Source of the DNA: Anaerolineae bacterium
Lineage (GTDB): Bacteria > Chloroflexota > Anaerolineae > DRVO01
Direction of reading: 5' to 3'
NCBI GenBank assembly: GCA_040768685.1
Contig: JAXGMM010000001.1
Location: 553,279-617,278 of the forward strand
Length of the DNA: 64,000 nucleotides
Shown: positions 25,899-44,389 of the stretch, in pieces
Position numbering within the stretch: the stretch's first letter is position 1
Layout: every line of letters begins with the position of its first letter
Made by a program: the position numbers and the translations under genes
The notes under the pieces: generated by a model
Told to the model about the DNA's origin: nothing
Seen by the model: only the letters and a program-made list of their open reading frames with translations
Database searches by the model: none

Positions 25899-28250
25899 AT
25901 GTCGGCCCACAGCACCATAATAAAGACGGCCTCCAGCCCTCGCCAGTTCCACATTCGTGGGCCGGTGCAGGCTGTGGCCCTGGCGGCAGTGGCGGTGGCC
26001 GCCGTGGCGCTGCGGTTCGGCGGCCTCAGCCGGCAAAGCCTGTGGGCCGACGAGGGTAACTCCTGGGGCATGGCCATTCGGTCGCTGGGCGAGATCGGCC
26101 CGGCGGCGGCGGGCGACATCCACCCCCCGTTGTACTACTACCTACTGAATCTCTGGTGCCGGCTCTTCGGGACCTCCGAGGCCGGCATGCGGTCGCTCTC
26201 GGCCCTGTTCGGCTGCCTCACGGTACTGGTCATCTACCTGTGGGCGCGGCGGATAGCGGGAGACTGGGCCGGAGTGGGGGCCGGGGTGCTGGCCGCTATC
26301 TCGCCGTTCGCCGTCTACTACTCGCAGGAAGCGCGCGCCTATGCGCTAGTCGCCCTCCTCACCGCCGTCGGATGCTGGACGCTCACGGAGTGCTTTCTTG
26401 CTCACGGCGAGGGGCGCCGGTGCCGCCGCTGGATGGTCGGCCACGTGCTGGCGACCGCCGGTCTCCTCTGGTCGCACTACCTGGGACTCGTGGTTCTGGT
26501 TCTGTACAACCTGGTGGCGGCTGCGTGGCTCTGGGGTCGGCTGGACCGGAGCGTGCGGCTGAAGGAATGGGCAGCGATGCAACTGGCGGCCGTCATCGTC
26601 TTCGTGCCTTGGCTGCCGCAGATGCTCGGGAGCGCCGGTTCCTGGCCGGCCATCAGCGCCCACGAGCCCCTGAGCTTCTATCTCTCGGAGCTGGCCCGCC
26701 TGTACACCTTGGGGCCGGGCGCGGAGGGCATGACGCGATGGGCTTGGCTGGCCCTAGCGCCGGCGGCCGTGGGCGTCGTAGCGGGGATGATGCGGGGACG
26801 TCACCGCCTTCTGTGGTCGCTGGTGATCCTGGCGGCGCTATGGCCTGCCCTGGCTCTGTGGTTGCTTTCGTTTCTCCGTCCTGCCTACCGCGCAAAGTTC
26901 CTGCTGCTCGGCCTTCCCGCCTATCATGTGTTGGCGGGTGCGGGGATGGCCGGGCCGGCGCTGTGGTCCGGGCGGCGCCGGGGCTGGGCTCTAGGTCTCC
27001 TGGTAGGTGCGGCGCTGGGAGCCCTGGCGTTTCCCGCCTCATGTAGCGGGCTCACCGGCTACCTTAGCGGTCGCCAGTCGGTGAAGGACGACTACCGAGG
27101 CCTGGCAGCGTACATCACCGCCGCGGCCGGATCGGACGGGGCGGTGGTGGTCAACGCGCCCGGCCAGATGGAGGTCTTCTCTTACTACTACCGCGGCGAG
27201 GCTCCCCTCTACGCCCTGCCGAGCAGTCGGCCGCCCGACGCCGCCACGCTGGAAGGGGAACTGGCCGCGATCGCCGCGGGCCATCCGCGCATCTTCTCGG
27301 TCATCTGGGCCACCGCGGAGAGTGATCCCGAAGGCGTCATGGAGCGGTGGCTTGACGCCCACGCCTACAAGGCATCGGACGTCTGGTTCGGCAACGTGCG
27401 CCTCACGCTCCATGAGACGCCCTCGTCCATGCCGCGGGAGCGTGAGACCCACGCCATCTTCGGCGACATCATCGCTCTCGAGTCGTATGCTCTGTCTGAG
27501 GCCGGCGTTCGTCCGGGGACGGCGGCGCCGGTGAGCCTGGTGTGGCGCCGCAGCGGCGTGGTAGCCGACGAGTACGCGCTGTTTGTTCAGGTCCTGGACG
27601 AGCGCAGCAACATCGTGGGCCAACGAGACGCGGCTCTCTCGGAGCGGCGGTCTGTGGCCGAGTGGCTTCCCGACGAAGAGATCGACGACAAGCAGGCGGT
27701 GCCCATCATGCTGGGGACGCCGCCGGGCGCCTACGCAGTGGTGGCGGGGTTATACAGCTTGACGACGGGCGCACGCTTGACGTTGCCCGACGGCAGCGAC
27801 CGGATGCAGTTGGGCACGGTGGAGGTGCTGCCCACGCAGGTGCTATCAGCCGGCGCGTTGCGAGCCACGCAGACTCAGGAGGTCGGGCTGGGCCCGCTGA
27901 GGCTGATGGCCTGGGATGTCTCGCCGCTGGGAGGCGCGCCGGGCGTGCAGGTGGAGACGGCGGCCGGTGCGCCGTTGTCGCTGGTGTTCTACTGGCGTGT
28001 CCTGGAGCCGGCAGAGGCACAGATGGAGTTCCTGCTCGACGCGGGCGGCCAGAGCCGACCCATCGGGCAGGTTCCGGCGCTCTCTCAGGCTCTGGCCCTG
28101 GGGCGGTGGGAAGTGGGGCAGACCTACCGCGATCCCCACATCGTGTTCCTTCCCGGCGACCTACAACCCGGCGAGTACCGGCTGTCGGTGGTGGCCAACG
28201 CGGGCGGCGGTCAGGGCCAGGTGGACCTGGGCCGCGTCCTGATCCGCTGA
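25899..28250 (+). CDS. GT-C fold glycosyltransferase, family 39/ArnT/PMT-like, with C-terminal duplicated beta-rich domain
   Basis: LWADEGNSW, HPPLYYYLL motifs of GT39/GT83 N-terminal loop; about 12 TM then about 330-aa soluble region containing two related domains (VSLVWRR...; LSLVFYWRV...). Confidence 0.75.
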   Translation: MSAHSTIIKTASSPRQFHIRGPVQAVALAAVAVAAVALRFGGLSRQSLWADEGNSWGMAIRSLGEIGPAAAGDIHPPLYYYLLNLWCRLFGTSEAGMRSLSALFGCLTVLVIYLWARRIAGDWAGVGAGVLAAISPFAVYYSQEARAYALVALLTAVGCWTLTECFLAHGEGRRCRRWMVGHVLATAGLLWSHYLGLVVLVLYNLVAAAWLWGRLDRSVRLKEWAAMQLAAVIVFVPWLPQMLGSAGSWPAISAHEPLSFYLSELARLYTLGPGAEGMTRWAWLALAPAAVGVVAGMMRGRHRLLWSLVILAALWPALALWLLSFLRPAYRAKFLLLGLPAYHVLAGAGMAGPALWSGRRRGWALGLLVGAALGALAFPASCSGLTGYLSGRQSVKDDYRGLAAYITAAAGSDGAVVVNAPGQMEVFSYYYRGEAPLYALPSSRPPDAATLEGELAAIAAGHPRIFSVIWATAESDPEGVMERWLDAHAYKASDVWFGNVRLTLHETPSSMPRERETHAIFGDIIALESYALSEAGVRPGTAAPVSLVWRRSGVVADEYALFVQVLDERSNIVGQRDAALSERRSVAEWLPDEEIDDKQAVPIMLGTPPGAYAVVAGLYSLTTGARLTLPDGSDRMQLGTVEVLPTQVLSAGALRATQTQEVGLGPLRLMAWDVSPLGGAPGVQVETAAGAPLSLVFYWRVLEPAEAQMEFLLDAGGQSRPIGQVPALSQALALGRWEVGQTYRDPHIVFLPGDLQPGEYRLSVVANAGGGQGQVDLGRVLIR

Positions 28251-28254
28251 TGGG

Positions 28255-28614
28255 TCAGGCGTTACGGCGGAAGAGGGTCTCGCTCGGGCCCACGGAGGGC
28301 TCGCTCTGGCCGGGCGGCAGTCGCATGGCGATGATCACTGCTCCGCGGTGGGCGGCCTGGAGGCGGTCGAGTTCCTGCTGGGTAGGCGCGGTGAAGGTGG
28401 CCACCCAGACCCGGAGGGCAGTCGGGTCGCCGCTAGTGTCCACGCTGACATAGCGGACCTCCGGACGGGTCAGGCACGCGGCTAGAACTTCGGTCGTCAC
28501 GGAGACGGCACTTTCGGACCGGCGCAGATCGGCTGGTGAGGTCGTCTCCCAACCGGAAGGGAACCGGTCCGCCAGAGAAGCAGGCTCGGCAGCGGATGGA
28601 TGATCGCCGGACAT
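28255..28614 (-). CDS. hypothetical protein (weak call)
   Basis: 120-codon ORF from ATG 28614; C-terminal half non-repetitive (VSVDTSGDPTALRVWVATFTAPTQQELDRLQAAHRGAVIIAM); no recognisable domain. Confidence 0.25.
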   Translation of the reverse strand: MSGDHPSAAEPASLADRFPSGWETTSPADLRRSESAVSVTTEVLAACLTRPEVRYVSVDTSGDPTALRVWVATFTAPTQQELDRLQAAHRGAVIIAMRLPPGQSEPSVGPSETLFRRNA

Positions 28615-28811
28615 AGCGGATGCTCCGAGTTGAGCGTGATGCCTTGCCGATCGAACGGTGCTATCGTAAGGCTTAGGCGCTTCGGGGAACAGCGCGGCCG
28701 GTGTATGCGTCTGCACAGAGGGAGTGGACGGCCGGATCGGATCGCCGGTGAGCGAGTCCGGCCTTGGCGTGAGGATGCTCTCACAAGGGCGGCAAGGACG
28801 CAGGTGGAACG

Positions 28812-29819
28812 GTGAACTCGCGGATAGAAGAAGAGAACGGCAACACCTGGATTCTGGTACTGGCGTTGGTGGCGGCCCTGGCATTGGTGGTCGCGTTTGT
28901 CATCCTACCTGCTCTCCGCAGGCAACCACCGCCGGCTCCGGCTACAGCTGTGGCCACTCTGGCGGCGGCGCCGGCACAAACCGGCCCGTCCCTGCGGGTG
29001 CAGGAGCACAGCGCCGGCGGCTTCGCCATCCTGGGCGAGGGCTGGCCGCGCGACGCCGCCGTCACGCTGCTGATCACCTCCAATCGGGGCGCGTCCGACT
29101 ATTGGCTCGGCCGGCTCCTGGCCGACTCGAATGGAGCCTTCCGGCGAGACGTTGCCTGGCGCAATGACTATCCAACCGGCGCGGGCGTCGAACTGGTGGC
29201 TCGCACGAGCGAGTTCGAGGTCAGGGCGCCGTTCGAGCTGCGCTCGGGCAGCCTCGATCCAGCTGTTCCTACCGCGACCGGCACCGCCGCACCCGGTGAC
29301 GCGACCGCGACTGCCACGCCGACCGTCACACCGACTGCGCTGCCGTCTCCGACGGCGTCGCCCACCGCCACGGTGACGCCAACTGCGACTCCCAGCCCGA
29401 GCCCGACGCCGCCGGCGACCCCGGCTGTGTTCTTCGGCTGGAAGGGGGAGTACTTCAACAACACCGATGTGAGCGGTGCTCCGGCGGTGGTCCGCGACGA
29501 CGAGATGATCGCCTTCGACTGGGGACAGGCCTACCCACTGCCCGGCGTGGGCGTGGACAACTTCAGCGTCCGCTGGACCAGGGAACTGGAGCTGCCGGCG
29601 GGCACCTACCGCTTCACATTGCGCGCCGATGACGGGGTGCGGCTGTGGGTGAATGAGGCGCTGCTGATCGACCGGTGGACGGCGGGGTATGCGACCACAG
29701 AGAGCGTGGTGCAACTGCCGGCCGGGGTGCACACGGTGCGAGTGGAGTACTTCGAGGCGACGGGCGAAGCACGGGTCTTTCTGGAGTGGGGCAGCGTGCT
29801 GTCGCTGCCGGCCCAGTAG
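28812..29819 (+). CDS. membrane-anchored protein with Pro/Thr/Ala linker and C-terminal PA14 domain
   Basis: N-terminal TM WILVLALVAALALVVAFVILPAL; linker TATGTAAPGDATATATPTVTPTALPSPTASPT; PA14 signature FFGWKGEYFNNTDVSGAP...DNFSVRWTRELELPAGTYRF...DGVRLWVNEALLIDRW. Confidence 0.7.
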   Translation: MNSRIEEENGNTWILVLALVAALALVVAFVILPALRRQPPPAPATAVATLAAAPAQTGPSLRVQEHSAGGFAILGEGWPRDAAVTLLITSNRGASDYWLGRLLADSNGAFRRDVAWRNDYPTGAGVELVARTSEFEVRAPFELRSGSLDPAVPTATGTAAPGDATATATPTVTPTALPSPTASPTATVTPTATPSPSPTPPATPAVFFGWKGEYFNNTDVSGAPAVVRDDEMIAFDWGQAYPLPGVGVDNFSVRWTRELELPAGTYRFTLRADDGVRLWVNEALLIDRWTAGYATTESVVQLPAGVHTVRVEYFEATGEARVFLEWGSVLSLPAQ

Positions 29820-29824
29820 CGGAG

Positions 29825-30160
29825 TCAGGGCGTTGGGGCCTCTGCCAGGCGGTAGAGCCACCAGCGCGATTTGCCGCGCCGCTGCTGCCTGTCGCAGTAG
29901 ATGACCATCCGTTGGCCGGCGGTGGTGCGCAGGTCAAGATAGTGCCGCCGCACATACGTCTCACCGTCGGCGCGCCCACCCTCGCGGGCGGTGCCTTTCC
30001 AGCGATCCAGTACCGCCGCTACTTCGTAGGCCTCCCCACGCCAGAGGAAACGCATGGGCACGCCCGGCTCGCCCAGCGGCATCCCCGCCAGATCGATCCG
30101 GTCGCGATCCGGGAAGATGGGCTCACTTACGAGACGCCACTTGGGTTCCTGCCCGCTCAT
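29825..30160 (-). CDS. small conserved hypothetical protein, translationally coupled to SDR
   Basis: 111 aa, ATGA overlap with upstream SDR stop; non-repetitive sequence FLWRGEAYEVAAVLDRW...YVRRHYLDLRTTAGQRMVIYCDRQ. Confidence 0.5.
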   Translation of the reverse strand: MSGQEPKWRLVSEPIFPDRDRIDLAGMPLGEPGVPMRFLWRGEAYEVAAVLDRWKGTAREGGRADGETYVRRHYLDLRTTAGQRMVIYCDRQQRRGKSRWWLYRLAEAPTP

Positions 30161-31395
30161 GTCTGTAGCCTCTCCAGGAGCTCGGACAGGGAGTCGATGA
30201 CGGCGACTCGCTCCGCGCTTTGCTCAGAGACGTAGCGGAGGCCTTCCTCGTCGCGCGAGAGACGAGAACACTCCTCGGGCGCCTCGGCGTAGTACCGGCG
30301 GAGGGTCTGCAAGCCCTCCAGCACGCCGGCGTGCTCGCGCTTGCCGCGGTCCTGCCCGGAGATGAGCATGCGATCGGCCCGGCGCAGGCGTCCTTGGAGG
30401 TCAGTGAGCAGGCGCGCCCAGTACTCCGGGTCCTGGCCCGTCCTGCGGCGGAAGCCGCGCTTGGCCAGGGGCCGCGCCAGCACGGGCGCGCGGTCTAGCT
30501 CGGTCACGGTGTGGTCGAGGATGGCCTGTAGGCGGGCGGTGAGGCGTTGCGCTTCCCCGATGAGTTCGGAGCGGGTGCGGAAGTCGCTGACCGGATGGGC
30601 CGGGGCGGGGATCTCCGAGCCGGGTTCGGGGGGCGCCTCCTCGGCCGCAACCCGGTCCAGAACGGTCTGGCCGGTCACAACCTGTCCGTGGTACTCGATG
30701 CTGTAGCGACCGATGAGATGCACGGCGGCTGCGGCGGCCCGATCGGCGGGGACGGCCGGCTCCATGAACTGCGTGAGCGTAAGGCCCAGGCGGGGCGCGA
30801 GGACGCGACCCGTCTCCCGCAGGCCGGGTGTGTCGACAATCCCCGGGTCAAAGGCGACCACGCAGATCCCCTGCTCGCCTACCTCGGCGGCCAGGGACTG
30901 AGTTAGCCCCAGCAGCCCTTGCTTGGAGGCGATGTAGGCGGACGCAAAGGGCATAGCAGCGCCGCTGACTAGGTTCACGATGATGCCGGAGCCACGCTCC
31001 AGCATGCCGGGCAGGAAGGCGCGGCACATCAGGTAGGGGCCGCGCAGGTTCATCGCCAGGGCGCGGTCCCACTCGCCGGGGTCCATCTCCACCACGGACG
31101 CTACCGGCCAGACTCCGGCTCCGTTCACCAGAACGTGAGGAGCGCCGACGTATGCCGTCACCTCGCGAGCCAGGCGCTCTACGCTGTAGGGATTGGCCAC
31201 ATCTGCGCGCACCTGCCTGGGTCGCGCGGGGACGTCCGCTTGGTCCGGCTCGTCGCCCTCGGGGAAGGCGCTGTCCACGGCCACCACCGTGGCCCCCCGG
31301 AGCGCCAGCGCTCCGGCCAAGGCGCGTCCGATGCCTTCCCCGGCGCCGGTGACCAGGACGCTCCGGCCCTCAAGGTCCATCTCCACTTCCGACAT
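30157..31395 (-). CDS. SDR family oxidoreductase with about 160-aa C-terminal helical extension
   Basis: VLVTGAGEGIGRALA Rossmann motif, YxxxK region; extension rich in Arg/Glu/Leu with no recognisable domain. Confidence 0.75.
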   Translation of the reverse strand: MSEVEMDLEGRSVLVTGAGEGIGRALAGALALRGATVVAVDSAFPEGDEPDQADVPARPRQVRADVANPYSVERLAREVTAYVGAPHVLVNGAGVWPVASVVEMDPGEWDRALAMNLRGPYLMCRAFLPGMLERGSGIIVNLVSGAAMPFASAYIASKQGLLGLTQSLAAEVGEQGICVVAFDPGIVDTPGLRETGRVLAPRLGLTLTQFMEPAVPADRAAAAAVHLIGRYSIEYHGQVVTGQTVLDRVAAEEAPPEPGSEIPAPAHPVSDFRTRSELIGEAQRLTARLQAILDHTVTELDRAPVLARPLAKRGFRRRTGQDPEYWARLLTDLQGRLRRADRMLISGQDRGKREHAGVLEGLQTLRRYYAEAPEECSRLSRDEEGLRYVSEQSAERVAVIDSLSELLERLQT

Positions 31396-31477
31396 TGATC
31401 TTCCTCGTTCTGTGGCTCAGTCGGCTACAGGCCGGACATGCCGTGGCGCGGCGAACGCTGTCCAGTGCAGCAGCGGT

Positions 31478-32974
31478 CTACTTGAACGCGGCAGCGAACT
31501 CGCGGGTAAGCTGAAGATAGAGATCGCCATACTGGGCGCTCGGCTCGACATAAGTCCCCTCCACCCACTCATTCCAGCTTTGCACCAGCAGCCAGTCTGG
31601 GCCGCTGGCCGCAGCGGCGTCGTAGGTGGCGCGATAGAACGAGCCGGAGTCGCGCTCTCGCCGCTGGGCGGCCGAAGGAACGCGGGCGTCGGACCGGCAG
31701 CCGGCGCGGGTGTCGTCGTAGCCGGGCGAGATGGTGCCGACCCAGAGCTTAGGGCTGCCATACGTCGCCTCGGCGGCCCGCACCGACTCCGCCCAACGGC
31801 CGGCCTTGGCATAGCAGGCGGGATCGGTGGCGTGGGTGATCTTGTAGACGTAGAGGCCATCGAAGACCGAGAGGTAGGACGGATCAAGGCCCTCGACGAT
31901 CCACCAGGTCTGCCGCTGGGGGTCCACGCGATCGCGGATGGCCCGCCAGGCCTCGACAGGGCTGCCGCCGGGCACGCGCTGCATGTCCGCGAAGAAGATG
32001 ACCGGCTTACCATCCAGACGCAGGAAGTTGGGGTGTCCGCCGTACGTGCCGATGAGGTAGGAGAGCGCCTCAACCAGGCTGTCCTGCGATGGGCCGGGCG
32101 AGCCGTGCCACAGGTGGCGCAGGAAGACAACCGAGGACTGGAAGCCGGTGCCGCCCGATTGGGCCAGCAACTGGGCCATGTTGGCGTCGGTGCGTTCTCC
32201 GGGCGCGAACCAGTGGAGCAGGAAGCCGTCGATGCCGGCGCCAAGGGCCTGCTGGACATGGCGGCCGATGGCGGCCGGGTCGTCGGAGCCGTAGGGCTCG
32301 GCCGGCCGGTCGCCGCCGCTGATGTTGCAGTCGTCCCAGCCGTCCGCGTCGTACCAGGCCAGATAGGAGGCCAGCACCAGGCGGGGAACCTGCGGGTGGG
32401 CGGCGGCCGCCGGCTCTACGGGCGGCGCGGCCTCTGGCGCAGGCGCTTCGGCTTCAGGCGCGGGCGCCACGGTAGGCTCGGGAGTGGCGTCGGCTTGGGC
32501 CACGGTCTCGGGCGCGGAAGTGCGCAAGGCGGCCGCGGCTTCGGCGGTGGCGGAAGCCGCGGCCGCCGCGGCCGTCGCCTCAGCGAGGCTCTGCGCGGTG
32601 GCTTCCTGCCTCAGACGGGCCTCGGCGGTGTAACGGGCTACGGTAGTAGCGGCTTGGGTGACCCGAGCGGCGGTGGTGGCGCCGGCCTGGGCTACCTGGG
32701 TCGCGCGGAAGCCGGCGGCGGCTGCTGTTTCCGTGGCCGGTAGGTCGGCGGTCGGCGACGGAGTGGCGGTGGGCTCCGGCGGAACCGTTGCCGGGGCGAT
32801 GACGGTCGCGCCCGCCGTCGCAGCGGCGGTGGCGAGCGAAGCCGAGGGCGGCGTCACTACCGGCGCGGACGACAGCAATGAAAGCAGCACGAGGCTCATC
32901 CCGAACACGCTAGCGGTGAGCAGCCCCGAGGCGGGCGAGTGAGTTCGGTCTGTCGGCGTCTGCGGGCCGGACAT
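31478..32974 (-). CDS. secreted/membrane-anchored glycoside hydrolase, GH99-like, with Ala/Pro/Glu/Thr low-complexity linker
   Basis: N-terminal signal anchor; linker PEPTVAPAPEAEAPAPEAAPP; catalytic-domain blocks ASYLAWYDADGWD and LLVQSWNEWVEGTYVEP (E-x-x-E pair as in GH99 endo-alpha-mannosidases). Confidence 0.55.
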   Translation of the reverse strand: MSGPQTPTDRTHSPASGLLTASVFGMSLVLLSLLSSAPVVTPPSASLATAAATAGATVIAPATVPPEPTATPSPTADLPATETAAAAGFRATQVAQAGATTAARVTQAATTVARYTAEARLRQEATAQSLAEATAAAAAASATAEAAAALRTSAPETVAQADATPEPTVAPAPEAEAPAPEAAPPVEPAAAAHPQVPRLVLASYLAWYDADGWDDCNISGGDRPAEPYGSDDPAAIGRHVQQALGAGIDGFLLHWFAPGERTDANMAQLLAQSGGTGFQSSVVFLRHLWHGSPGPSQDSLVEALSYLIGTYGGHPNFLRLDGKPVIFFADMQRVPGGSPVEAWRAIRDRVDPQRQTWWIVEGLDPSYLSVFDGLYVYKITHATDPACYAKAGRWAESVRAAEATYGSPKLWVGTISPGYDDTRAGCRSDARVPSAAQRRERDSGSFYRATYDAAAASGPDWLLVQSWNEWVEGTYVEPSAQYGDLYLQLTREFAAAFK

Positions 32975-33114
32975 GGCTGGTCCTGTGGGCGAATGTGAGG
33001 CCGGAGTATACCAGCCGCACCGTCCATTGGGGTAGGCGGGGCTGTGTGGGTTGGCATCTGCTCCGACCGGTACGGCCTGGTGGGCCCTGGCGGCCGGACC
33101 CGACCCCCGCTGGT

Positions 33115-33224
33115 GGTCTCCAAGAGCGAGACCACTGCTCCCTTTCCCCAGGAAGGAAGGGGCCGGAGAGACCGATTCCGTTTCCCCCTTCCCGCGTAGG
33201 GAAGGGGGCTAGGGGGTTGGGTTC
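33115..33224. repeat. GC-rich hairpin repeat element (copy B)
   Basis: GGTCTC-caagagc-GAGACC, then CCCCCTTCCC-gcgta-GGGAAGGGGG CTAGGGGGTTGGGTTC; near-identical to 36538-36726. Confidence 0.6.
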
Positions 33225-33354
33225 TTTCCCCGCAGGCACCCTCCGTCGGCTCCGACCACGACTAGGTTGGAGCACATGAGTCGGCTTATTGGCTATCGGC
33301 CCCGTGTTTACCGCCGCCATGCGCAATGCCGGTGCGCGCCAGGCCTATCTGCGG

Positions 33355-33383
33355 TTGATTCTCGGCCCTTGGGCGCCTATAAT
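33355..33383 (+). promoter_or_regulatory. sigma70 promoter
   Basis: TTGATT-17nt-TATAAT, 45 nt upstream of ATG 33428 which has GGTAGGAGG SD. Confidence 0.55.
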
Positions 33384-33427
33384 CGGGTCTGTACCGTATG
33401 CGGCTCATACTGGGTAGGAGGCATCAC

Positions 33428-34132
33428 ATGGATCTCGGCAAGTCATTCACCTTCATGTTCGAAGACAAAGACTGGGTGGGCAAGATCCTCATAGGGGCGC
33501 TCTTCGCGCTGCTCAGCTTCGCGCTCGTGGGCGTTCCGTTCATCGTGGGGTATGTCCTGGAGTTGGTGCGCCGGGTGGCGGCCGGGCGAGACGACGTCCT
33601 CCCCGCCTGGGACGACCTAGGCGACAAGTTCGTCCAGGGGCTGGTCCTGCTGGTGATACTGTTCGTGTTCATGCTGCCGGCGACGCTTCTCAGCGGTTGT
33701 GTAGGCGCCTTCCTGGGCACGATGGCCGACACCGTGCGGAGCGACGCGGGGGCAACGATGTTCGGGCTGGGCTCAGGGCTCGTCGGGCTGCTGGCGGCGG
33801 CTTACGGGTTTGTTATCTGTCTGCTCACGCCTGCCATCGCTATCCGCTATGCGATGACGCGCGATTTCGGCGCCTCGTTCAACCTGGGCCAGATCTGGCG
33901 CATCGCGAGCGCCAACCTCGGCAACTACATCGTCGTGCTTCTCGTGACCTGGGTGGCCGGGCTGATCTCCGGCTTCGGAGTGATCGCCTGCCTCATCGGC
34001 GTGTTCGTGACCTACTTCTGGGCCATGCTGGTCCAGGGGCACCTCTACGGTCAGTACTGGCGCGAGCACCTCGCGGACGCGGCTCCGGCGCCCGCCGAGA
34101 CCACTCTCCCCAGCGAGCCGCTGAGCTTCTAG
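33428..34132 (+). CDS. DUF4013-like polytopic membrane protein
   Basis: MDLGKSFTFMFEDKDWVGKILIGALFALLSF...GYVLELVRRVAAG pattern and 4-6 TM helices; start at internal ATG with strong SD. Confidence 0.6.
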   Translation: MDLGKSFTFMFEDKDWVGKILIGALFALLSFALVGVPFIVGYVLELVRRVAAGRDDVLPAWDDLGDKFVQGLVLLVILFVFMLPATLLSGCVGAFLGTMADTVRSDAGATMFGLGSGLVGLLAAAYGFVICLLTPAIAIRYAMTRDFGASFNLGQIWRIASANLGNYIVVLLVTWVAGLISGFGVIACLIGVFVTYFWAMLVQGHLYGQYWREHLADAAPAPAETTLPSEPLSF

Positions 34133-34157
34133 CGATCGTATCGCATTACCACCCACA

Positions 34158-34192
34158 GGGGGCGAGCCTCTCCGGTTCGCCCCCTCTCTGTT
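34158..34192 (+). terminator. rho-independent terminator
   Basis: GGGGGCGA-11nt loop-TCGCCCCC then TCTCTGTTG. Confidence 0.55.
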
Positions 34193-34426
34193 GCCCATGT
34201 CCCAATGCCGGCCGATCACGGAAAGCGCATCCGCCAGGCGGCGCCGGCCGGCGGCATTCGCTCTCGCCGTGACGGACGGGAGTGTCCGTCGATGACGAGC
34301 GCGGAACGGCGCATCTCGGCAGCAGCGCCTGGGCTCAGGCCTCCTCGAAGGGGATTGTGGCGCTCCGGCGCCAGACCGTCGCTGACCGCCAAGGGTTCGC
34401 ATCGGCTTCGCCGGGGCGGGGTTCTA

Positions 34427-34455
34427 TTGTGTGAGTCGCCGCCATTGTCTACTAT
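34427..34455 (+). promoter_or_regulatory. candidate promoter, leaderless configuration
   Basis: TTGTGT-17nt-TACTAT ending 6 nt before ATG 34462. Confidence 0.4.
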
Positions 34456-34461
34456 GGGGCC

Positions 34462-35046: not shown

Positions 35047-35067
35047 GGGGGTCCTGGAGGCGTCCTT

Positions 35068-36496: not shown

Positions 36497-36537
36497 GCCG
36501 TCTCCTGTTAGGGCGCGGAACCTGACCTCGCTCGTGG

Positions 36538-36726
36538 TCTCAAAGAGCGAAACTACCGCTCCCCTTCCCCAACAAGGGAGGGGGTCCGGAAGCCGCGCCG
36601 GTGCCGCAGAGGCCAATTCCGGTTCCCCCTTCCCGCGCAGGGAAGAGTCGGGCTGGGCCTTCGTGCCACTGTACAGTCCCCGGTTCCCCCTTCCGCGTCG
36701 GGAAGGGGGCTAGGGGGTTAGGTCAG
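36538..36726. repeat. GC-rich hairpin repeat element (copy C, internally duplicated)
   Basis: GGTCTCAAAGAGCGAAACTACCGCTCCCCTTCCCC...; two units CCGGTTCCCCCTTCCCGCGCAGGGAAG and CCGGTTCCCCCTTCCGCGTCGGGAAGGGGGCTAGGGGGTTAGGTCA. Confidence 0.6.
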
Positions 36727-36772
36727 TCCCCCAGGCCGAATTGGCCGGAGCAGATGGACGCGATGGCTATCC

Positions 36773-37716
<944 letters not shown>

Positions 37717-37720
<4 letters not shown>

Positions 37721-38253
37721 TGTCCTTCCTCTCCGGTCAAGCGGAATTGCGATTGCAGGATGCCCATGACGACGATGTCGTCATATCTGCCGTCTTTGTA
37801 GACGGCCTCGCGCAGAACGCCCTCGCGAACGAAGCCGCACTTCTCATAGGAGCGCTGGGCACGATGGTTGCCGGCGTAGACATGGAGGCACACGCGATGC
37901 AGGTTCAGTTGGTCGAAGCCGAAGGCCAGCAACAGACGCATGGCGTCGGTGCCGTAACCCTTCCCCCAAAAGTCGCGCTCGCCAATGAAGATGCCCGCCT
38001 CGGCGGAACGGTACCGGGGATGGATGCGGTGCAGCCCGGTATTGCCGATGTGGCGCCCCTCGAGAGTCTCGATGGCAAAGACTTCCTGGTCGCCGGCCTT
38101 ACCGAGGCCTTCCAGCCAGTGCTCCTCGTCCGCCAGCGAGACGGGACGGTAGAAGCCGAGGAAGCGGCGCACCTCCGGGTCGGCGATCCAGGCCACGATG
38201 CCCGGGAGGTCCTCTCGCGTGACGGGCCGTAGACGCACCAGCGAGCCTTCCAT
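37717..38253 (-). CDS. GNAT family N-acetyltransferase (RimJ/RimL-like)
   Basis: acetyl-CoA motif GNHRAQRSYEKCGFVREG, 178 aa. Confidence 0.75.
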
Positions 38254-38405
38254 GTCCGGGCACCCCTTCCACCAGGATCTGGGCAGCGGACGCTACCACG
38301 AACGGACATTATAGACCGGGGCGCCCCAGGTGAGAAATGGCAAAGGCGGCAGTAGAGCGCCGGCTCCGGCGCGCCGGGACCGGGAAGCAGGGCGGGGAAT
38401 GAAGG

Positions 38406-38427
38406 CGGCCGGACCCGAAGGTCCGGC
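38406..38427 (-). terminator. stem-loop downstream of permease gene (weak terminator)
   Basis: GGCCGGACC-cgaa-GGTCCGGCC perfect 9-bp stem; no strong U-tract. Confidence 0.3.
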
Positions 38428-38453
38428 CGCGATCGCGCGAGGGATCGGAGAGG

Positions 38454-39812
38454 CTAGATCAGCTTCTCGATGGCGGGCATGGCCAAGTAGACGAGGAAGG
38501 CCAGCGAGGTCACGTAGAGCAGAGCGCTCACCTGGCGACCCTTGCCCATGACCAGCTTCAGGAAGACGTAGGAGACGAAGCCCCAGGCTATGCCGTTGGT
38601 GATGGACCAGGCGAAGGGCATGAGCATGATGGTGAACAGGGCGGGGACGCCGTCTTCGACCGTGCCGAAGGGGATGTCCTTGATCTGCTGAACCATCAAG
38701 AAGCCGACCAGAATCAGCGCGGGGGCGGTGGCCTCTTGCGGCACCACGCCGGCGAGCGGCGACAGGAAAACGCAGAGCAAGAAGAGGATGCCGACTACAA
38801 CTGAGGTGAGGCCGGTGCGTCCGCCTTCCTCGACGCCTGCGGCGCTCTCGATGTAGGTGGTGGCGCTGCTGGCGCCGGCGAGACCGCCGACCATGGCGGC
38901 TACGGAATCGACAATCAGGACTTCGCGCAGGCGGGGCATGGTGCCCGTCTTCTCGTCCACCCAGCCGCCCTGGGAGCCGATGCCCACGACGGTGCCCATA
39001 GTGTCGAAGAAGTCGGAAAGCATGAAGGAGAAGACGGTCAGCGCGGCGGAGATAACGCCCAACTTGCCGAAGGCGCCGAAGTTGAGGCCGGCGCCGAAGG
39101 TCTCAAAGGAGGGCATGGACACGATGCTGGAAGGGAGGACGGCAGCGCTCTCCACCACGGACACCGGGTTGCCGGTGATAGCCCGCAGGACCATGGCGAA
39201 GACGGTGGTGCCCAGGATGCCCCAGAGGAGGGCGCCCTTTACCTTCCTGGCCATGAGCAGGACGGTGAAGAGCAGGCCAATGGTGGCCACCAGGATGGGG
39301 ACGCTGTCGTAAGTGCCCAAGGTGGTGAGGGTGCCGATGCCGGCCTTGATGAAGCCGGCGTTGTTGAGGCCGATGAAGAGGATGAACATGCCGATGCCGA
39401 CGGAGATGGCCCGCTTCAGGCCCATGGGGATGGCGTTCATGATGGCTTCCCGCAGGCCGGTGAGCACCAGGATGGTGATCAGCACACCCTCGAGGAAGAT
39501 CACCCCCATGCCTTCCTGCCAGGTTAGGCCGAGCTCGGGCCGGGATACTACCAGCGCCACGAGCGCGGAGTTGATGCCCATGCCCGGGGCAAGCGCGTAG
39601 GGGTAGTTGGTGAACAGGCCCATGGCCAAACTCATCAGGCCGGCGACGACGCAGGTGGCAACCAGGGCCGGGCCGAAAGGCACTCCGGCGGACGACAGGA
39701 TCGAGGGGTTAACGAAGATGATGTAGGCCATGACCATGAACGTGGTCAGGCCGGCTCCGATCTCCGTCCCCACAGTAGTACGGTGCTCTTTCAACCTGAA
39801 GAACGCCTCCAT
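38454..39812 (-). CDS. NCS2 family purine permease (AzgA/PbuG-like adenine/guanine/hypoxanthine)
   Basis: FFRLKEHRTTVGTEIGAGLTTFMVMAYIIFVNPSIL N-terminus diagnostic of AzgA family; ATG 39812 with GGAGGAGAGGAG SD. Confidence 0.8.
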   Translation of the reverse strand: MEAFFRLKEHRTTVGTEIGAGLTTFMVMAYIIFVNPSILSSAGVPFGPALVATCVVAGLMSLAMGLFTNYPYALAPGMGINSALVALVVSRPELGLTWQEGMGVIFLEGVLITILVLTGLREAIMNAIPMGLKRAISVGIGMFILFIGLNNAGFIKAGIGTLTTLGTYDSVPILVATIGLLFTVLLMARKVKGALLWGILGTTVFAMVLRAITGNPVSVVESAAVLPSSIVSMPSFETFGAGLNFGAFGKLGVISAALTVFSFMLSDFFDTMGTVVGIGSQGGWVDEKTGTMPRLREVLIVDSVAAMVGGLAGASSATTYIESAAGVEEGGRTGLTSVVVGILFLLCVFLSPLAGVVPQEATAPALILVGFLMVQQIKDIPFGTVEDGVPALFTIMLMPFAWSITNGIAWGFVSYVFLKLVMGKGRQVSALLYVTSLAFLVYLAMPAIEKLI

Positions 39813-39840
39813 CTCCTCTCCTCCGGCGGGCACGGCTCCA

Positions 39841-39861
39841 GGTCACAACAACGTTGTGACC
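39841..39861. promoter_or_regulatory. perfect 9-3-9 inverted repeat immediately upstream of purine permease
   Basis: GGTCACAAC-aac-GTTGTGACC, 29-49 nt upstream of start codon. Confidence 0.4.
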
Positions 39862-39995
39862 ATGCCGCGTCCAATGTGGGTTTGTGGCGCGAGCATTCTA
39901 TGCACATGGGCGGCGCGCGTCCAAGCCAAATGGGCTCTGAATTGCACGTGCCGAGGCACAGAAACGGATCCCGTCGAGCCGGATCATGGGGTGAT

Positions 39996-42290
39996 CTACT
40001 GAGCGGTGAGGGGGAGCTCGACCCGGGCAGCGCCGTCGGCGAGCGGCAGGGCCTGGCCGCCCTCCAGAGCGTACATGCCGATCCTGAGCGCGACCACCGG
40101 GGCGCCGGCGGGCAGCAGCAGTGCGTGCCGGTCCTCAACCTCCTCGCCGGGCGCCCAGGTATCGGTGGGGCGCGTCCAGCCGGCGGGCACGGCGTCGCTC
40201 TGGGCGATGACGGCGCCGCTCGAGTCCAGCGCATGCACGAAGACCTTGTAGGAACGCGAGGGCGTCGCCTTGGCGCGCCAGTGCAAGCGCACGAGAACGG
40301 TGTCGCCTTCGACGGCGAAGGCCGTCTCCCTGAGGGTGATGCCGTCCGCGAACTCGGCATGAACACCGGACGCGGTCATGGCCTCGGGCGCTAAGGCGTA
40401 GAGGGTCAGGCGACGCTCGCCGGCGCTCTCCTGAAGGGCGCGGTAGCCGATTCCTGCCAGCCAGTCCCCAGTGGCTGAAGAGAATCCCTGGTCGAGGACC
40501 CAGAAGCGGCTGTACTCGGCTGCCAGCCGGTCCGCTACATCGTGCGGATAATCCGGCAGGGAGCAGGTAGCCAATCGGCCCCGGTAGCGATCAGAGACCA
40601 GCGTGGCGTCGCCGGGCGTGGTGGTGATGATCACATCGCCGGCCCTCTCCCGCTGCGCAATGGTCGCCAAGAGGCCGTCGAGAGGGAGCGAGCCGGCCGC
40701 GTGGGAGCGGGCGAGCGTGAAGGCGAGAGAACCTACCACCGCGAGGGCGGCGACGGCGGTGAGGATGGTTCCGTGGCCGGCCAGGGTGGAGCGAACCGCC
40801 ATGACCGACAGGACGAGGCCGGCAAGCAGCGCCCCCAAGCTCAGAGCGTCGACGGTACCGGCGGACGCCCAGGCGAAGTCCAGTGTGCCGAGGCCTAGGT
40901 GCGACCACTGGCCGACCAGGGGAGAGAAGCGCGGCGCCCAGAAGGTGCGCGGGTCGAACAGGGGCAGGCCGGTGCTGAGCAAGCTGTCCTGGAAGGGAGC
41001 AAAGTGGACGAGCGAGCCGGGTAGGTTCAGGACGAAGCCGACGGCCGCCAGTGCCGGCAGGCCGCTTCGCCAATGGCCGCCGCGCTCCCAGATGGAAGCT
41101 AGGCCGAGGGCGAGGAACGGCATGGCGGGGGCGAGGAAGCGGGGCCCCCAGCAGTACCCCCCGTGCCACATGAACCACTTGCCGTAGATGAGAACGTGGG
41201 CGGCGGCGATGGCCAGTGCCCCCCAGGCGACGTCCCGGTGTCGCCGCGTCAGGTCGCGGAAGCCGAAGAGGGCGAGGGCGAGCACGGGAGCGTACAGGAA
41301 GAGGCCGCGGCCGGGGCTGATGAGCAGACCGCTCACACCCTCCACGAGGTTGGCGCTGAACGACTCCTGGGCCAGGTAGCCGCTGGTGAGGGGGTTGCCG
41401 AAGCGAAGGTAGTTGAACCAGCCGGAGAGGGCCACGAACACGCCGAGGCCAACGGAGAAGGCGAGGATGTGGGGCAGACCTCTCCCCCGATCTCTCTCCC
41501 ACGGGGAGAGGGGAGCCTCTCCACCCCCTTCCTTCCCAGGGAAGGGGGCCAGGGGGTGGGGCAGACCTCTCCCCCGACCCCTCTCCCACGGTGAAAGGGG
41601 GGCCTCTCCACCCCCTTCCTTCTCAGGGAAGGGGGCCAGGGGGTTAGGTCTACCTACCCAGATCGCCAGGGCAAAGACGGGCGTCAGCGCGAGAGAGGTG
41701 GTGCGGGTGAGAGCGGCGAAGCCCAGACCGGCGCCCACACCGAGGGCCGCCGCCAGCGATGGCCGCCGGCGGAAGGCCAGCCAGGCAGCGAACGCGGCCA
41801 GCAGGGCCAGGCCGGTCAGGGGATCGCTGAAGTCGTGCTTGCCGTAGGGCAGCAGGGGCGTGGCGAGGGAAAGCGCCAAGGCGGCGGCCAACGAGGCTCC
41901 GGTCGAGTAGCCGAGAAGCGCCAAGCAGCGGTAGAGCAGCCAGCCGGTGGCGGCGGCCACCAAGGGGCTTGCCAGCAGTGCCGCCTGCAGGAGGCCGATC
42001 GCCCCTGCCCGCAGGCCGAGCCAGGCCAGGGGCAGGGCGGCGACGGTCTGGCCGAGGCCCTTGCGCGAGTAGAGGTCGCCGTCGGGGCCGAAGGTGCCTT
42101 GCTGCAGGCCCATCCAGCGATAGGCGTTCATGTCCAGGTCGCCGCGGCGGGCGAGGCTCTCGGTGGTGGCCAGCATGGCTAGGCCATCGCTGGAGTGGGG
42201 TACGCCGCTGAAGTTCAGGAATTGGACGGCGAGCAGGAAGACGAACAGCGCCAGCCCCACCCGGCGCCGGGTGCAGCGGTCGGCGCTCAT
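39996..42290 (-). CDS. GT-C fold membrane glycosyltransferase (ArnT/PMT-like) with C-terminal beta-rich domain; carries in-frame repeat insertion
   Basis: N-terminal FLNFSGVPHSSDGLAMLATTESLARRGDLDMNAYRW loop like GT39/GT83; about 13 TM; C-terminal domain similar to those of 25899-28250 and 42287-44389; start ATG 42290 overlapping upstream stop (ATGA). Confidence 0.7.
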   Translation of the reverse strand: MSADRCTRRRVGLALFVFLLAVQFLNFSGVPHSSDGLAMLATTESLARRGDLDMNAYRWMGLQQGTFGPDGDLYSRKGLGQTVAALPLAWLGLRAGAIGLLQAALLASPLVAAATGWLLYRCLALLGYSTGASLAAALALSLATPLLPYGKHDFSDPLTGLALLAAFAAWLAFRRRPSLAAALGVGAGLGFAALTRTTSLALTPVFALAIWVGRPNPLAPFPEKEGGGEAPLSPWERGRGRGLPHPLAPFPGKEGGGEAPLSPWERDRGRGLPHILAFSVGLGVFVALSGWFNYLRFGNPLTSGYLAQESFSANLVEGVSGLLISPGRGLFLYAPVLALALFGFRDLTRRHRDVAWGALAIAAAHVLIYGKWFMWHGGYCWGPRFLAPAMPFLALGLASIWERGGHWRSGLPALAAVGFVLNLPGSLVHFAPFQDSLLSTGLPLFDPRTFWAPRFSPLVGQWSHLGLGTLDFAWASAGTVDALSLGALLAGLVLSVMAVRSTLAGHGTILTAVAALAVVGSLAFTLARSHAAGSLPLDGLLATIAQRERAGDVIITTTPGDATLVSDRYRGRLATCSLPDYPHDVADRLAAEYSRFWVLDQGFSSATGDWLAGIGYRALQESAGERRLTLYALAPEAMTASGVHAEFADGITLRETAFAVEGDTVLVRLHWRAKATPSRSYKVFVHALDSSGAVIAQSDAVPAGWTRPTDTWAPGEEVEDRHALLLPAGAPVVALRIGMYALEGGQALPLADGAARVELPLTAQ
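41471..41643. repeat. tandem duplicated hairpin repeat (2 x about 87 nt) inserted in-frame within CDS
   Basis: two units GGGGCAGACCTCTCCCCCGA..CTCTCCCACGG.GA.AGGGG..CCTCTCCACCCCCTTCCTT.CAGGGAAGGGGGCCAGGGGGT; encodes PLAPFPEKEGGGEAPLSPWERGRGRGLPH twice. Confidence 0.65.
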
Positions 42291-44389
42291 CGCGGCACGA
42301 CTTGGGGGGCAGGGCCGACGGTCACGTCGGCGAGGACGCACGAGTCGCTGCCGGCGGCCGTAAGCAGACGATCGCCGGTCTCCGGATCGTACACGCCCAG
42401 GAGCAACCGGTACGTCTCGGGCGAGGACCCACCGAGGTCGATAGCGTGCCGATCCAGGACGTACCCGTTGCTCCACGCCGGGACGCTGTCGCTCTGCGCC
42501 AGGGGGCGGAGGTCCGGGCCTGCCAGATGGACGAAGACGGAGAGACCGTTGGCTACCGCGCTGCCCTGCCAGACGAGGGTCAGATTGAGGCGGTCGTCCC
42601 GGATCGTGGACTCCCAGCCCACCAACGTGGTCGCATCCGCGAACCGTACCTGCGCCGCCCTAAGGGCCGAGCGCGGGATCCAGTGGCTGAGGCTGTACGC
42701 GGCGAACTCGGTCTCGCCCACGAGATAGGCCAGGCGGCCAAGCGAGTCGAGGACGGCTGTCGACAGGCCGGAGTCGTCGCCGGATGCGAGCACGAGCCAG
42801 ATGCCTTTCGGCTGCAGGTCGACGACTTGCCGGTCGAGATGGGACGCGAGGTCGCCATCGGGGGCGCGGTCGTCCACGGTGCGGAGCGCCAGGCGGCGGT
42901 GCAAGTGGGGGTAGAAGCGCCCCAGGTCCGGCTGGCGGAGGAAAAGCAGCGTCTCCCCCGGTTCACTCACTTGGCCGAGGTACTCGATAGCGGGACGTGC
43001 CGGCTCGACCTGGTAGCGGGAGCGTGCGTAGGCGTCCAACAGCCGCCAGGAGAGCAGAGCCAGGGCGATGCCGGCCGCCGCGCCGGCCCACGGCGCCAGT
43101 CGGCGCAGATGGGCGGTGGGCCAGGGCTTGTCGAGATAGTCCAGGAGCAGGCCGCCGGCCAGGAGGGCGAGGAGACCGGTGCGCGCGGTGGTGGTGAGCA
43201 CGAGGAGCCAGGTCTCGCCGGGCAGCAGGATGAAGAATCCATGCGATTCCAGGTAGTTGAAGAAGGTGAGGCTGAGGGCCAACACCACTCCCCGCCAGTC
43301 GGGCCAGAGCACGGCGACGAAGGGCAGAAGGTAGAGCAGGTACTGCGGGCTCCAGCCTTTGCTGAGCAGGAAGAGCAGGGTGAAGCTCAGGCCGGTGAAG
43401 GCAACGGCGGTGCGGGGGCGGTCCCAGCGGGCGCGGGCCAGGTACAGCCGCACGTAGACCGCGACCAGGACCAAGCTCAACAGGCCGTAGGGCACGCGGC
43501 CGTCCCAGGCGGGGCCGCTCAGGGCGGCCAGGTCGCGGACGTCGGCGGGGGCGACGCCGAAGCCGTAGTAGCCGTCCAGCAGCGCCCAGATCGTCTGCCA
43601 GGGCGGCCGGATGCGCTGGATGTCCAGCGGGGCCAGTAGCAGACGCGGGTTGTGCGCCAGGAAGGGCGCGGCGACGGCGATGACGGCGGCCCCACCCGCG
43701 ACTAGGTAGCGCAGGCCGCGGCCCCAGTGAAACCCGCGCCATCGCCGGGGCAACTCCGGCGCCAGTCGCCTGAGGCCCACGGGGAACACCAGGGCGGGGA
43801 GCAGCTTCGTCATTACGCCCAGGCCGCCGGCCACCCCGGCTAACAGCCAGCGCTGCTCCAGGACCAGCCAGAGCGCGAGCATGACCAGGAAGGTGGGCAG
43901 GCTGTCGAAGTGGGCCTGGGCGGTGTAGGCGGGCAGGAAGAGGAGGGCGTAGAACACAGCCGAGCGGAGGGCGACCGCTCGCCCCCGCATCCGGTCAGCG
44001 AGAGCGTACACCAGGGCGAGCGTGCCCGCCTCGGCGGCGATGAGCACCGAGCCGAGCAGGAGGTCGAAGATCAGTTGCGGCTGCTCCCAGGGGGGCAGGA
44101 GGAGGGAGAGCCGATAGAGCCCGACCAGCAGCCAGGGGAAGATGGGTGGGTAAGGGCTCCAGATATTGACATAAGGGTACAGGCCGCGGTCGGAGAGGGC
44201 GGCGAACTCACGGTAGTAGTAGTAGTCGGAGAAGTCGGCGAGGAAGCCGCCCGGCCGCAGCAGCCACAGCGAACCGAGACGGAAGGCGACCAAGAGAGTC
44301 AGAAGCAGAAGGAAGTCGCGGCGGTGATTGTCGGCGGCGGTCCTGGGGTTCACGGCGCCACTGTACAAGCGTGAGCGGGCCGCTGGCAA
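42287..44389 (-). CDS. GT-C fold membrane glycosyltransferase (DUF2029/GT87-like) with C-terminal beta-rich domain
   Basis: multiple TM, Tyr-rich N-terminus YYYYREFAALSDRGLYPYVNIWSPYPP, MTKLLPALVFP; C-terminal LTLVWQGSAVANGLSVFVHLAG...LLLGVYDPETGDRLL related to other two GT-C genes; start codon uncertain (TTG 44389). Confidence 0.65.
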   Translation of the reverse strand: MPAARSRLYSGAVNPRTAADNHRRDFLLLLTLLVAFRLGSLWLLRPGGFLADFSDYYYYREFAALSDRGLYPYVNIWSPYPPIFPWLLVGLYRLSLLLPPWEQPQLIFDLLLGSVLIAAEAGTLALVYALADRMRGRAVALRSAVFYALLFLPAYTAQAHFDSLPTFLVMLALWLVLEQRWLLAGVAGGLGVMTKLLPALVFPVGLRRLAPELPRRWRGFHWGRGLRYLVAGGAAVIAVAAPFLAHNPRLLLAPLDIQRIRPPWQTIWALLDGYYGFGVAPADVRDLAALSGPAWDGRVPYGLLSLVLVAVYVRLYLARARWDRPRTAVAFTGLSFTLLFLLSKGWSPQYLLYLLPFVAVLWPDWRGVVLALSLTFFNYLESHGFFILLPGETWLLVLTTTARTGLLALLAGGLLLDYLDKPWPTAHLRRLAPWAGAAAGIALALLSWRLLDAYARSRYQVEPARPAIEYLGQVSEPGETLLFLRQPDLGRFYPHLHRRLALRTVDDRAPDGDLASHLDRQVVDLQPKGIWLVLASGDDSGLSTAVLDSLGRLAYLVGETEFAAYSLSHWIPRSALRAAQVRFADATTLVGWESTIRDDRLNLTLVWQGSAVANGLSVFVHLAGPDLRPLAQSDSVPAWSNGYVLDRHAIDLGGSSPETYRLLLGVYDPETGDRLLTAAGSDSCVLADVTVGPAPQVVPR

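Follow-up and report, generated by a model that had tools for sequence, protein, structure and literature searches.

Three GT-C-type membrane proteins with a common C-terminal module in an Anaerolineae genome: different lineages, one accessory unit and a conserved gene pair

Within a stretch of 64,000 nucleotides from an Anaerolineae bacterium (GenBank assembly GCA_040768685.1, contig JAXGMM010000001.1, positions 553,279 to 617,278; this whole stretch is hereafter called the window, and coordinates count from its first letter unless another locus is named), three genes for large membrane proteins are situated within 20 kb: P1 (25899-28250, forward strand), P2 (39996-42290, reverse strand) and P3 (42287-44389, reverse strand). 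The original prediction, made from the sequence alone, considered them to be three paralogous GT-C glycosyltransferases with a common beta-rich C-terminal domain, two of them translationally coupled, and all three part of a dedicated glycosylation system. The locus raises the question of how far the three proteins are actually related, what their common C-terminal part might be, and whether their proximity reflects a joint function. Judging from profile and structure comparisons, P1, P2 and P3 represent three separate GT-C lineages that have one shuffled accessory module in common, and P3 and P2 form an operon that appears to be conserved across classes of Chloroflexota.

Concerning the C-termini, composition-adjusted BLASTP relates P1 to P2 (4e-18 over 271 aa), P2 to P3 (2e-08) and P1 to P3 (2e-05). 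A hidden Markov model (HMM) of the beta-rich module, which was built from 29 sequences of other organisms and contains no sequence of the window, was run with filters off against the 588 six-frame open reading frames (ORFs) of the window. It matches P2 with 3.2e-40 and, with independent E-values of 2.4e-27, 2.8e-08 and 3e-19, the first copy in P1, the second copy in P1, and P3, respectively; the next match has an E-value of 0.13. The common C-terminal domain, including the recurring blocks that had been seen twice in P1, is confirmed by these comparisons as a case of true homology, not of mere likeness in composition.

The membrane domains, by contrast, exhibit no such relationship. Full-length family profiles of P2 and P3 align in hhalign with a probability of 100%, which is derived from the C-termini, whereas the membrane domains alone reach 0.4% (P1/P2), 1.0% (P1/P3) and 10.5% (P2/P3). 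Paralogy over the whole length is thereby ruled out, and of the three supposed paralogues it is the C-terminal part that stands as homologous. Following from the values for the membrane domains, the proteins are therefore assigned to three separate GT-C lineages, which would be PMT_2/GT39-83-like in P1, Chloroflexota-specific and distantly PMT-like in P2, and similar to ALG3, glycosylphosphatidylinositol (GPI) mannosyltransferase I and PimE in P3. A PDB sequence search with the family profiles A2 and A3 returned no match for one of them and, for the other, a match to a chain-length determinant protein at chance level (E 0.12).

All three ORFs have a coding-type composition, with a third-position GC of 0.84 in P1, 0.84 in P2 and 0.89 in P3 (window GC 65-70%), and because such a third-position excess is typical of coding genes here, they are regarded as real genes. 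P1 encodes 783 aa (the ORF has an alternative 5' limit at 25860 and otherwise extends over 25899-28250), P2 encodes 764 aa and is nested in a longer ORF extending to 42476, and P3 encodes 700 aa if read from TTG 44389 or 688 aa if read from GTG 44353. As originally described, each of them consists of a polytopic membrane N-terminus and a soluble C-terminus: the hydrophobicity scan finds many membrane segments up to around aa 386 (P1), 531 (P2) and 416 (P3), followed by a soluble tail. Furthermore, an acidic residue after the first transmembrane segment (TM1), in the first extracytoplasmic loop, is conserved in P1, in the P2 family and in the P3 family alike, such that the acidic loop of GT-C enzymes is found in all three N-terminal regions. 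Together with a match of P1 above the PMT_2 cutoff, matches of P2 relatives to PMT_2 and PMT, and a GT-C fold in the model of P3, this supports the assignment of all three proteins to membrane glycosyltransferases of the GT-C type or near to it.

In P1, the membrane (catalytic) domain comprises aa 1-386 (25899-27056, forward strand), of which aa 75-239 match the Pfam family PMT_2 (PF13231; GT39/GT83-type) with an E-value of 6.6e-15 and 56.1 bits, passing the gathering threshold of 26.1; STT3, TMEM260-like, Agl23 and Pmt models are also matched, more weakly. The acidic motif 'WADEGN', containing an Asp-Glu pair, follows immediately after TM1. The C-terminal tail (also on the forward strand) begins with an alpha/beta subdomain at 27081-27428 (approximate limits), recognised from the BLASTP alignment of P1 371-638 with P2 517-759 and from the multiple alignments A1/A4, and continues with two beta-sandwich modules. 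The first copy is situated at 27453-27830 (HMM positions 2-127). The second is divergent; its matched core at 27951-28193 (HMM positions 17-100) lies in a full module of around 27876-28247, and it aligns in register with the other copies (alignment A5).

Three proteins, each with an N-terminal membrane anchor and a long low-complexity linker, are encoded near P1. The first (25084-25827, reverse strand) possesses a Pro/Thr/Ser-rich linker followed by a beta-rich globular domain of unknown kind, the second (28812-29819, forward strand) a Pro/Thr/Ser-rich linker followed by a PA14 domain, and the third (31478-32974, reverse strand) an N-terminal membrane anchor, an Ala/Thr/Pro-rich linker, a match to Pfam Glyco_hydro_99 (1.2e-20) and a WbsX-like C-terminus. 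Since linkers of these kinds are typical targets of O-glycosylation, these three proteins are candidate substrates of a PMT_2 enzyme.

In P2, the membrane domain comprises aa 1-531 (40698-42290, reverse strand), with hydrophobic segments, the invariant residues D35, D53, K151 and R196, and a block WFMWHGGY.WGPRF. Its family is large: at least 476 word-index matches exist, annotated as 'hypothetical proteins' and derived nearly all from Anaerolineae or Chloroflexota, and the relatives include metagenome-assembled genomes of Anaerolineae at 58-73% identity. After TM1 the family exhibits the motif 'HSSDG', with Asp35 present in 48 of 48 and Asp53 in 48 of 49 members. When the family was scanned at E <= 0.01, PMT_2 was matched by 23 and PMT by 12 of 49 members (best E-value 5e-07). 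P2 thus appears, from these matches, to belong to a Chloroflexota-wide family that is only a distant relative of PMT and PMT_2. Its tail consists of an alpha/beta subdomain (40371-40688, approximate limits, reverse strand), corresponding to beta-alpha-beta elements at residues 9-105 of the AlphaFold2 model of the C-terminus, and of one beta-sandwich module (40014-40358, reverse strand).

Within a loop between membrane helices, P2 carries an in-frame tandem duplication (41469-41644, reverse strand) of two GC-rich units of 87 bp, for which Tandem Repeats Finder gives a period of 87, 2.0 copies and 93% matches, and which encodes PLAPFPxKEGGGEAPLSPWERxRGRGLPH twice (2 x 29 aa). The unit is found in a single copy at the same site in P0061, an ortholog of 63% identity, and is absent from the other 12 homologues compared. 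P0048, a protein of the P3 family, contains an insert that resembles this repeat ('PLSLAGRGAGGEGGAWERP'). A structured mobile element was considered for the 87-bp repeat and rejected, its folding being no better than that of shuffled sequences (z 0.07) and no further copy being present in the window.

P3 itself lies below every Pfam and NCBIfam threshold, and its placement derives from the structure model, from its relatives and from the spacing of conserved residues. The model contains around 13 long helices before aa 448, including an extra long helix at aa 413-448, and a soluble tail from about aa 450. Compared with known GT-C structures, the figure per match is 25.3 for ALG3, 24.3 for GPI mannosyltransferase I, 22.3 for PIG-U, 21.1 for ALG6, 19.2 for PimE, 16.4 for ArnT, 14.9 for AglB and 11.9-14.1 for Pmt1/2/4. 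The predicted fold is thus unambiguously of the GT-C type, with ALG3, GPI mannosyltransferase I and PimE as its nearest counterparts. Among the relatives of P3, 17 of 39 match Pfam GT87 (PF09594, the PimE family), and a phmmer search with the N-terminus gives a weak match to GPI mannosyltransferase 1 (E = 0.0016), in which D43 of P3 is aligned with an Asp whose place is taken by Ala in the second deposited (variant) sequence.

The membrane (catalytic) domain of P3 (43046-44353, reverse strand) is characterised by a D40-x-x-D43-x-x-x-Y47 loop and an invariant K183; across 39 family members, D43 is conserved in 35, D40 in 32, Y47 in 37 and K183 in all. The spacing of D40, D43, Y47 and K183 is that of D55, D58, Y62 and K195 in PimE. 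In the latter enzyme, D58 at the tip of the first juxtamembrane helix is the catalytic base, and Y62 and K195 are likewise essential, whereas D55 is not (PMC12041525). On the basis of residue spacing, D43, Y47 and K183 of P3 may be regarded as the equivalents of D58, Y62 and K195. The tail of P3 comprises an alpha/beta subdomain (42656-43027, approximate limits, reverse strand), seen as alternating strands and helices at aa 453-541 of the AlphaFold2 model and in hhalign to the P2 family, and a beta-sandwich module (42314-42649, reverse strand) with modelled strands at aa 542-687.

As regards the limits of P3, the ORF 42287-44389 exists as originally given, but GTG 44353 is a more likely start than TTG 44389: the database protein P0016, identical to P3, begins at the former codon (688 aa). 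A sigma-70-like -35/-10 match (TTGCCA, 18 nt, TACAGT) lies at 44389-44360 on the reverse strand, over the TTG codon. The gap of around 680 bp upstream of P3 contains a fragment of a URO-D-family gene (44371-44982, forward strand). BLASTP (1e-08) aligns this fragment with residues 192-280 of a URO-D-family protein encoded intact at 54090-55145, and it probably represents a pseudogene remnant. At this place, the relative L001 possesses a Macro-domain gene. The ORFs 44350-45045 and 28255-28884 (both reverse strand) were rejected as genes, with no family match and an implausible composition.

The C-terminal unit shared by the three proteins thus consists of an alpha/beta subdomain of around 100-110 aa and an Ig-like beta-sandwich of around 120 residues, the latter being present once in P2 and P3 and twice in P1. 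Structure prediction for the C-terminus of P2 (237 aa, alignment of 23 sequences) gave a model of high predicted local confidence (pLDDT 92.5) with a beta-alpha-beta part and a beta-sandwich, in line with the beta-rich domain that had been proposed. The agreement of this model with known structures is weak in Foldseek (best E = 3.7e-05; TM-score around 0.5 to the carbohydrate-binding domain of Wzt), the closest structural matches of the module are non-binding Ig-like linker domains of GH2 enzymes, and no known GT-C structure is found among the best 60 structural matches. The suggestion that the module binds a carbohydrate or an acceptor is upheld in so far as the model predicts a real beta-sandwich domain, a fold compatible with carbohydrate-binding modules (CBMs), whereas membership in a curated CBM or other binding-domain family is not found, the C-termini of P1-P3 having no Pfam or NCBIfam match at E <= 1. 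The signature of the module is strongly conserved (W, H, Q-x-D, P-T-x-x-W-x-P-G-E, D-R-H, G-x-Y).

The module is by no means restricted to this locus. When the HMM of the sandwich was searched exhaustively against 1.84 billion representative proteins, 32,192 of them matched at E <= 1e-3, 22,691 at <= 1e-10 and 7,187 at <= 1e-30, the best matches being proteins of around 1000 aa with three or four matched stretches each. Among the 48 top matches, the N-terminal Pfam families are PMT_2 (21), PTPS_related (7), PMT (5), TMEM260-like (3) and YfhO (2), and marginal matches exist to DUF4832 (4), Wzt_C (1) and NPCBM_assoc (1). The proteins to which the module is fused thus come from at least five GT-C Pfam families, and the Pfam and NCBIfam libraries searched contain no model of the module. 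The named top matches belong to Chloroflexota; as the profile itself was built from Chloroflexota sequences, the range may be wider. Within this phylum, the module is very common in GT-C-type enzymes and not special to the window. Because two proteins that consist of the module alone, P0011 and P0013, start with lipoprotein-type signal peptides, we infer that the unit works outside the cytoplasm. Among orthologues from 81 loci, the sandwich is found in 68 of 79 P2-like but in only 17 of 47 P3-like proteins, and the comparison identifies it as an accessory that was apparently gained and lost.

P3 and P2 are joined in the window by an ATGA (42287-42290, reverse strand; the sequence reads ...CCG CGA TGA / ATG AGC), in which the stop of P3 overlaps the start of P2. 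The translational coupling proposed for the two genes is thus read directly in the sequence, and it is kept in other genomes: L001 (GCA_013178015.1), the nearest genome with long context, has the same overlap of 4 nt and similar neighbours. A scan of species-representative genomes with the P2 family alignment yielded 80 loci from Anaerolineae, Caldilineae, Ardenticatenia and other Chloroflexota, 63 of them with enough upstream DNA. A P3-like gene is situated directly upstream on the same strand in 31 of these 63 loci, within around 4 kb in 11 more, and in none of these positions in 21; the P3-like stop and the candidate P2-like start overlap or are at most 30 nt apart in 27 of 48 loci. By this gene order, P3-P2 is to be regarded as an operon conserved across Chloroflexota classes.

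Further genes recur beside the pair in the 81 loci, namely LPG_synthase_TM (flippase-like) in 19, a PMT_2-like GT-C enzyme with ILEI domain in 15, an NAD-dependent sugar epimerase in 14, a module-bearing TMEM260-like GT-C enzyme in 11, and a radical-SAM/SPASM protein and a methyltransferase in 9 loci each. L038 contains a seven-gene run on one strand with tiny gaps (1292-12710, forward), in the order methyltransferase, NAD epimerase, radical-SAM/SPASM protein, P3-like, P2-like, PMT_2-ILEI GT-C (around 930 aa) and TMEM260-like GT-C with beta module; L047 contains the same run without the methyltransferase (2334-12705, forward). In both of these Anaerolineales loci, neither the P3-like nor the P2-like protein has a beta-sandwich module. 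Since the partners form such tight same-strand runs, a dedicated pathway with several GT-C enzymes seems to exist in relatives, of which only the two-gene core is present at the site studied here. An MFS transporter fused to HEAT repeats at its C-terminus (around 758 aa; e.g., L079 2852-5131, forward strand) recurs in 10 loci and is situated between the P3-like and the P2-like gene in most loci where the pair is split.

Taken together, the reading that we favour, with moderate confidence, is that P1-P3 are envelope glycosyltransferases of three GT-C lineages that depend on lipid-phosphate sugars and share an extracytoplasmic acceptor-binding unit. At the outer face of the membrane, the membrane domain would accept a polyprenyl-phosphate sugar; the transfer of this sugar to an envelope acceptor would be effected by the conserved Asp in the first outer loop, and the C-terminal unit would bind or position the acceptor, i.e., a surface glycan or a glycoprotein. 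P3 and P2, as a single transcription and translation unit, would perform consecutive steps on one product. Because of its closest relatives, P3 is probably a user of polyprenyl-phosphate-mannose, from which it would transfer mannose as an alpha-mannosyltransferase, whereas P1 would work independently as another enzyme of this general type. By analogy, the binding or positioning of the acceptor is the most likely role of the unit: the Ig-like C-terminal CBM of the GT136 enzyme ORF12 binds the acceptor O-antigen, and the CBMs of EmbC and AftD bind acceptor glycans (PMC11127046).

Several observations weigh against this reading. The CBM of ORF12 was dispensable under the conditions tested (PMC11127046), and the many P2-like and P3-like orthologues that lack the module presumably work nevertheless. 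For P2 itself, the Pfam search returned no family at E <= 1, the thresholds of PMT_2 and PMT are not reached, and the match of P2 to the NCBIfam model LA_3751/LA_3752 putative glycosyltransferase (63.7 bits, E 1.4e-17, aa 13-403) remains below the 200-bit cutoff. PIG-U and GAB1, both among the top structural neighbours of P3, are non-catalytic. Finally, Pfam scans of around 59 ORFs of the window revealed neither a GT2-type polyprenyl-phosphate sugar synthase nor a flippase.

The last point also concerns the idea that three such enzymes within 20 kb indicate a dedicated system, which does not hold for the window. The genes around and between P1 and P3-P2 are mostly housekeeping genes, coding for phosphoribosyl pyrophosphate (PRPP) synthetase, a PfkB kinase, a GNAT protein, a xanthine/uracil permease and an extracytoplasmic function (ECF) sigma factor, furthermore for an SDR protein, peptide deformylase, NAD synthase, amidohydrolases, a peptide-binding protein, a ceramidase-like protein and an M28 peptidase. 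In the synteny test, no other window genes are conserved beside the pair beyond the close relatives L001 and L002. A glycosylation island in the window is ruled out by this test and the Pfam scans, and the donor synthase and flippase that a three-component system would have encoded together with its GT-C enzyme are not encoded here. A phosphoribosyl-donor route, considered for PRPP synthetase and PfkB beside P2 in analogy to arabinan and ribofuranose systems, was rejected, as the linkage exists in the closest relative only and no polyprenyl phosphoribose synthase is present.

It comes close to an even choice whether P1, P2 and P3 have any function in common: they may simply be members of a hugely expanded family that lie within 20 kb by coincidence, with a link only between P3 and P2. 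The genes between P1 and P2 are housekeeping genes and not syntenic in relatives, L001 likewise contains four GT-C genes in 22 kb that are scattered among housekeeping genes, and the module family comprises more than 32,000 representative proteins. A common mannose-containing product, however, would be suited by the GH99-like protein (31478-32974) situated between P1 and P3-P2. GH99 is a family of endo-alpha-mannosidases and mannanases, and this putative endo-alpha-mannosidase would fit a mannose-containing surface glycan; it is not conserved beside the homologues examined.

Alternatively, the enzymes, or at least P1, could be Pmt-like protein O-glycosyltransferases acting on Pro/Thr/Ser-rich linkers of exported proteins; the C-terminal unit would then recognise a protein as substrate and not a glycan. 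P1 is a PMT_2 protein flanked by membrane-anchored proteins with long Pro- and Thr-rich linkers, the P2 family is weakly PMT-like, and TMEM260-like O-mannosyltransferase domains bear the module as well. PMT_2, however, also includes modifiers of lipids and glycans (ArnT-like enzymes), the nearest relatives of P3, i.e., ALG3, GPI mannosyltransferase I and PimE, act on lipid-linked glycans and not on proteins, and the linker-rich neighbours are not conserved beside the homologues examined, such that this explanation appears unlikely. That the shared unit is instead a structural spacer, a ruler or an oligomerisation element, which determines how far the enzyme extends into the envelope layers or anchors it there and whose copy number tunes length, is improbable: the non-binding GH2 linker domains among its closest structural matches, the number of matched stretches (up to four among relatives) and its variable presence among orthologues would suit such a role, but the conserved polar and aromatic signature points to a ligand site rather than to a spacer, and the module resembles the glycan-binding domain of Wzt.

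The favoured reading of acceptor-binding envelope enzymes can also be carried further, although the result must be called speculative and rather doubtful as a whole. The unit would then mark a phylum-wide GT-C machinery with P3-P2 as its core, building an undescribed mannose-containing polymer or lipoglycan wholly outside the membrane, and modules arranged in tandem would serve as a ruler or processivity clamp. By analogy, the polymer would be outer-layer material of the Chloroflexota envelope and would be made much as the lipomannan and lipoarabinomannan (LM/LAM) and the arabinan of mycobacteria.

Apart from the three genes and their surroundings, a cluster at 2447-10235 (reverse strand) of the window contains two sulfatases with SGSH_C, a sulfotransferase-family protein, two GFO/IDH/MocA oxidoreductases and a xylose-isomerase-like TIM-barrel protein, and looks like a processing locus for sulfated sugars or glycans.

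Concerning the significance of these results, the composition and biosynthesis of the Chloroflexota envelope are poorly understood, and its extra layers have been 'suggested' to be polysaccharide or protein (PMC13319060); for this reason, the genes described here are reasonable candidates for envelope biosynthesis. The P3-P2 operon constitutes a concrete genetic handle and an entry point to a pathway that is uncharacterised in the phylum, and if the module binds a nascent envelope polymer, it might serve as a probe for isolating and identifying that polymer. The practical gain lies in annotation, i.e., in a new domain family and in a GT-C assignment for two families of 'hypothetical proteins'. 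The finding is real but fairly ordinary, and useful to specialists rather than surprising.

Among known systems, P3 is most similar to PimE (GT87), PIG-M/Gpi14 (GT50) and ALG3 (GT58), sharing with PimE the spacing of Asp, Tyr and Lys and with GPI mannosyltransferase I a weak sequence match. The matched chains of ALG3, GPI mannosyltransferase I and PimE, however, comprise 383-407 residues and are too short for a tail like that of P3, in which an alpha/beta subdomain and a beta-sandwich add around 250 aa. To our knowledge, no phosphatidylinositol mannoside (PIM), GPI or N-glycan pathway is known for the host Chloroflexota bacterium. P1 resembles the bacterial PMT_2/GT39-GT83 enzymes (Pmt, ArnT) in its score above threshold and in the Asp-Glu pair after TM1, and around half of the P2 family does so weakly; unlike the curated enzymes of this group, P2 remains below every cutoff, and the membrane domains of P1 and P2 have no PDB sequence match.

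Despite the general similarity in plan to EmbC, AftD and the GT136 enzyme ORF12 of Citrobacter youngae, in which a GT-C membrane domain is likewise followed by an extracytoplasmic beta-rich module, there are several differences: no sequence relationship to these proteins was found, the donor synthase and flippase partners of the three-component system are absent from the window, and the Chloroflexota unit possesses an additional alpha/beta subdomain, is found in tandem, with as many as four matched stretches in one protein, and is common to at least five GT-C Pfam families. The Ig-like beta-sandwich of GH2 enzymes and the O-antigen-binding domain of Wzt share only 7-15% sequence identity with the module, and the Pfam families Wzt_C, DUF4832 and NPCBM_assoc are matched marginally and by few relatives (1-4 of 48). 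GT-C enzymes with C-terminal beta-sandwich modules are thus already known; what is new is an abundant unit of alpha/beta and Ig-like parts that has no Pfam or NCBIfam model, the placement of P2 and P3 among GT-C enzymes, and the conserved P3-P2 operon.

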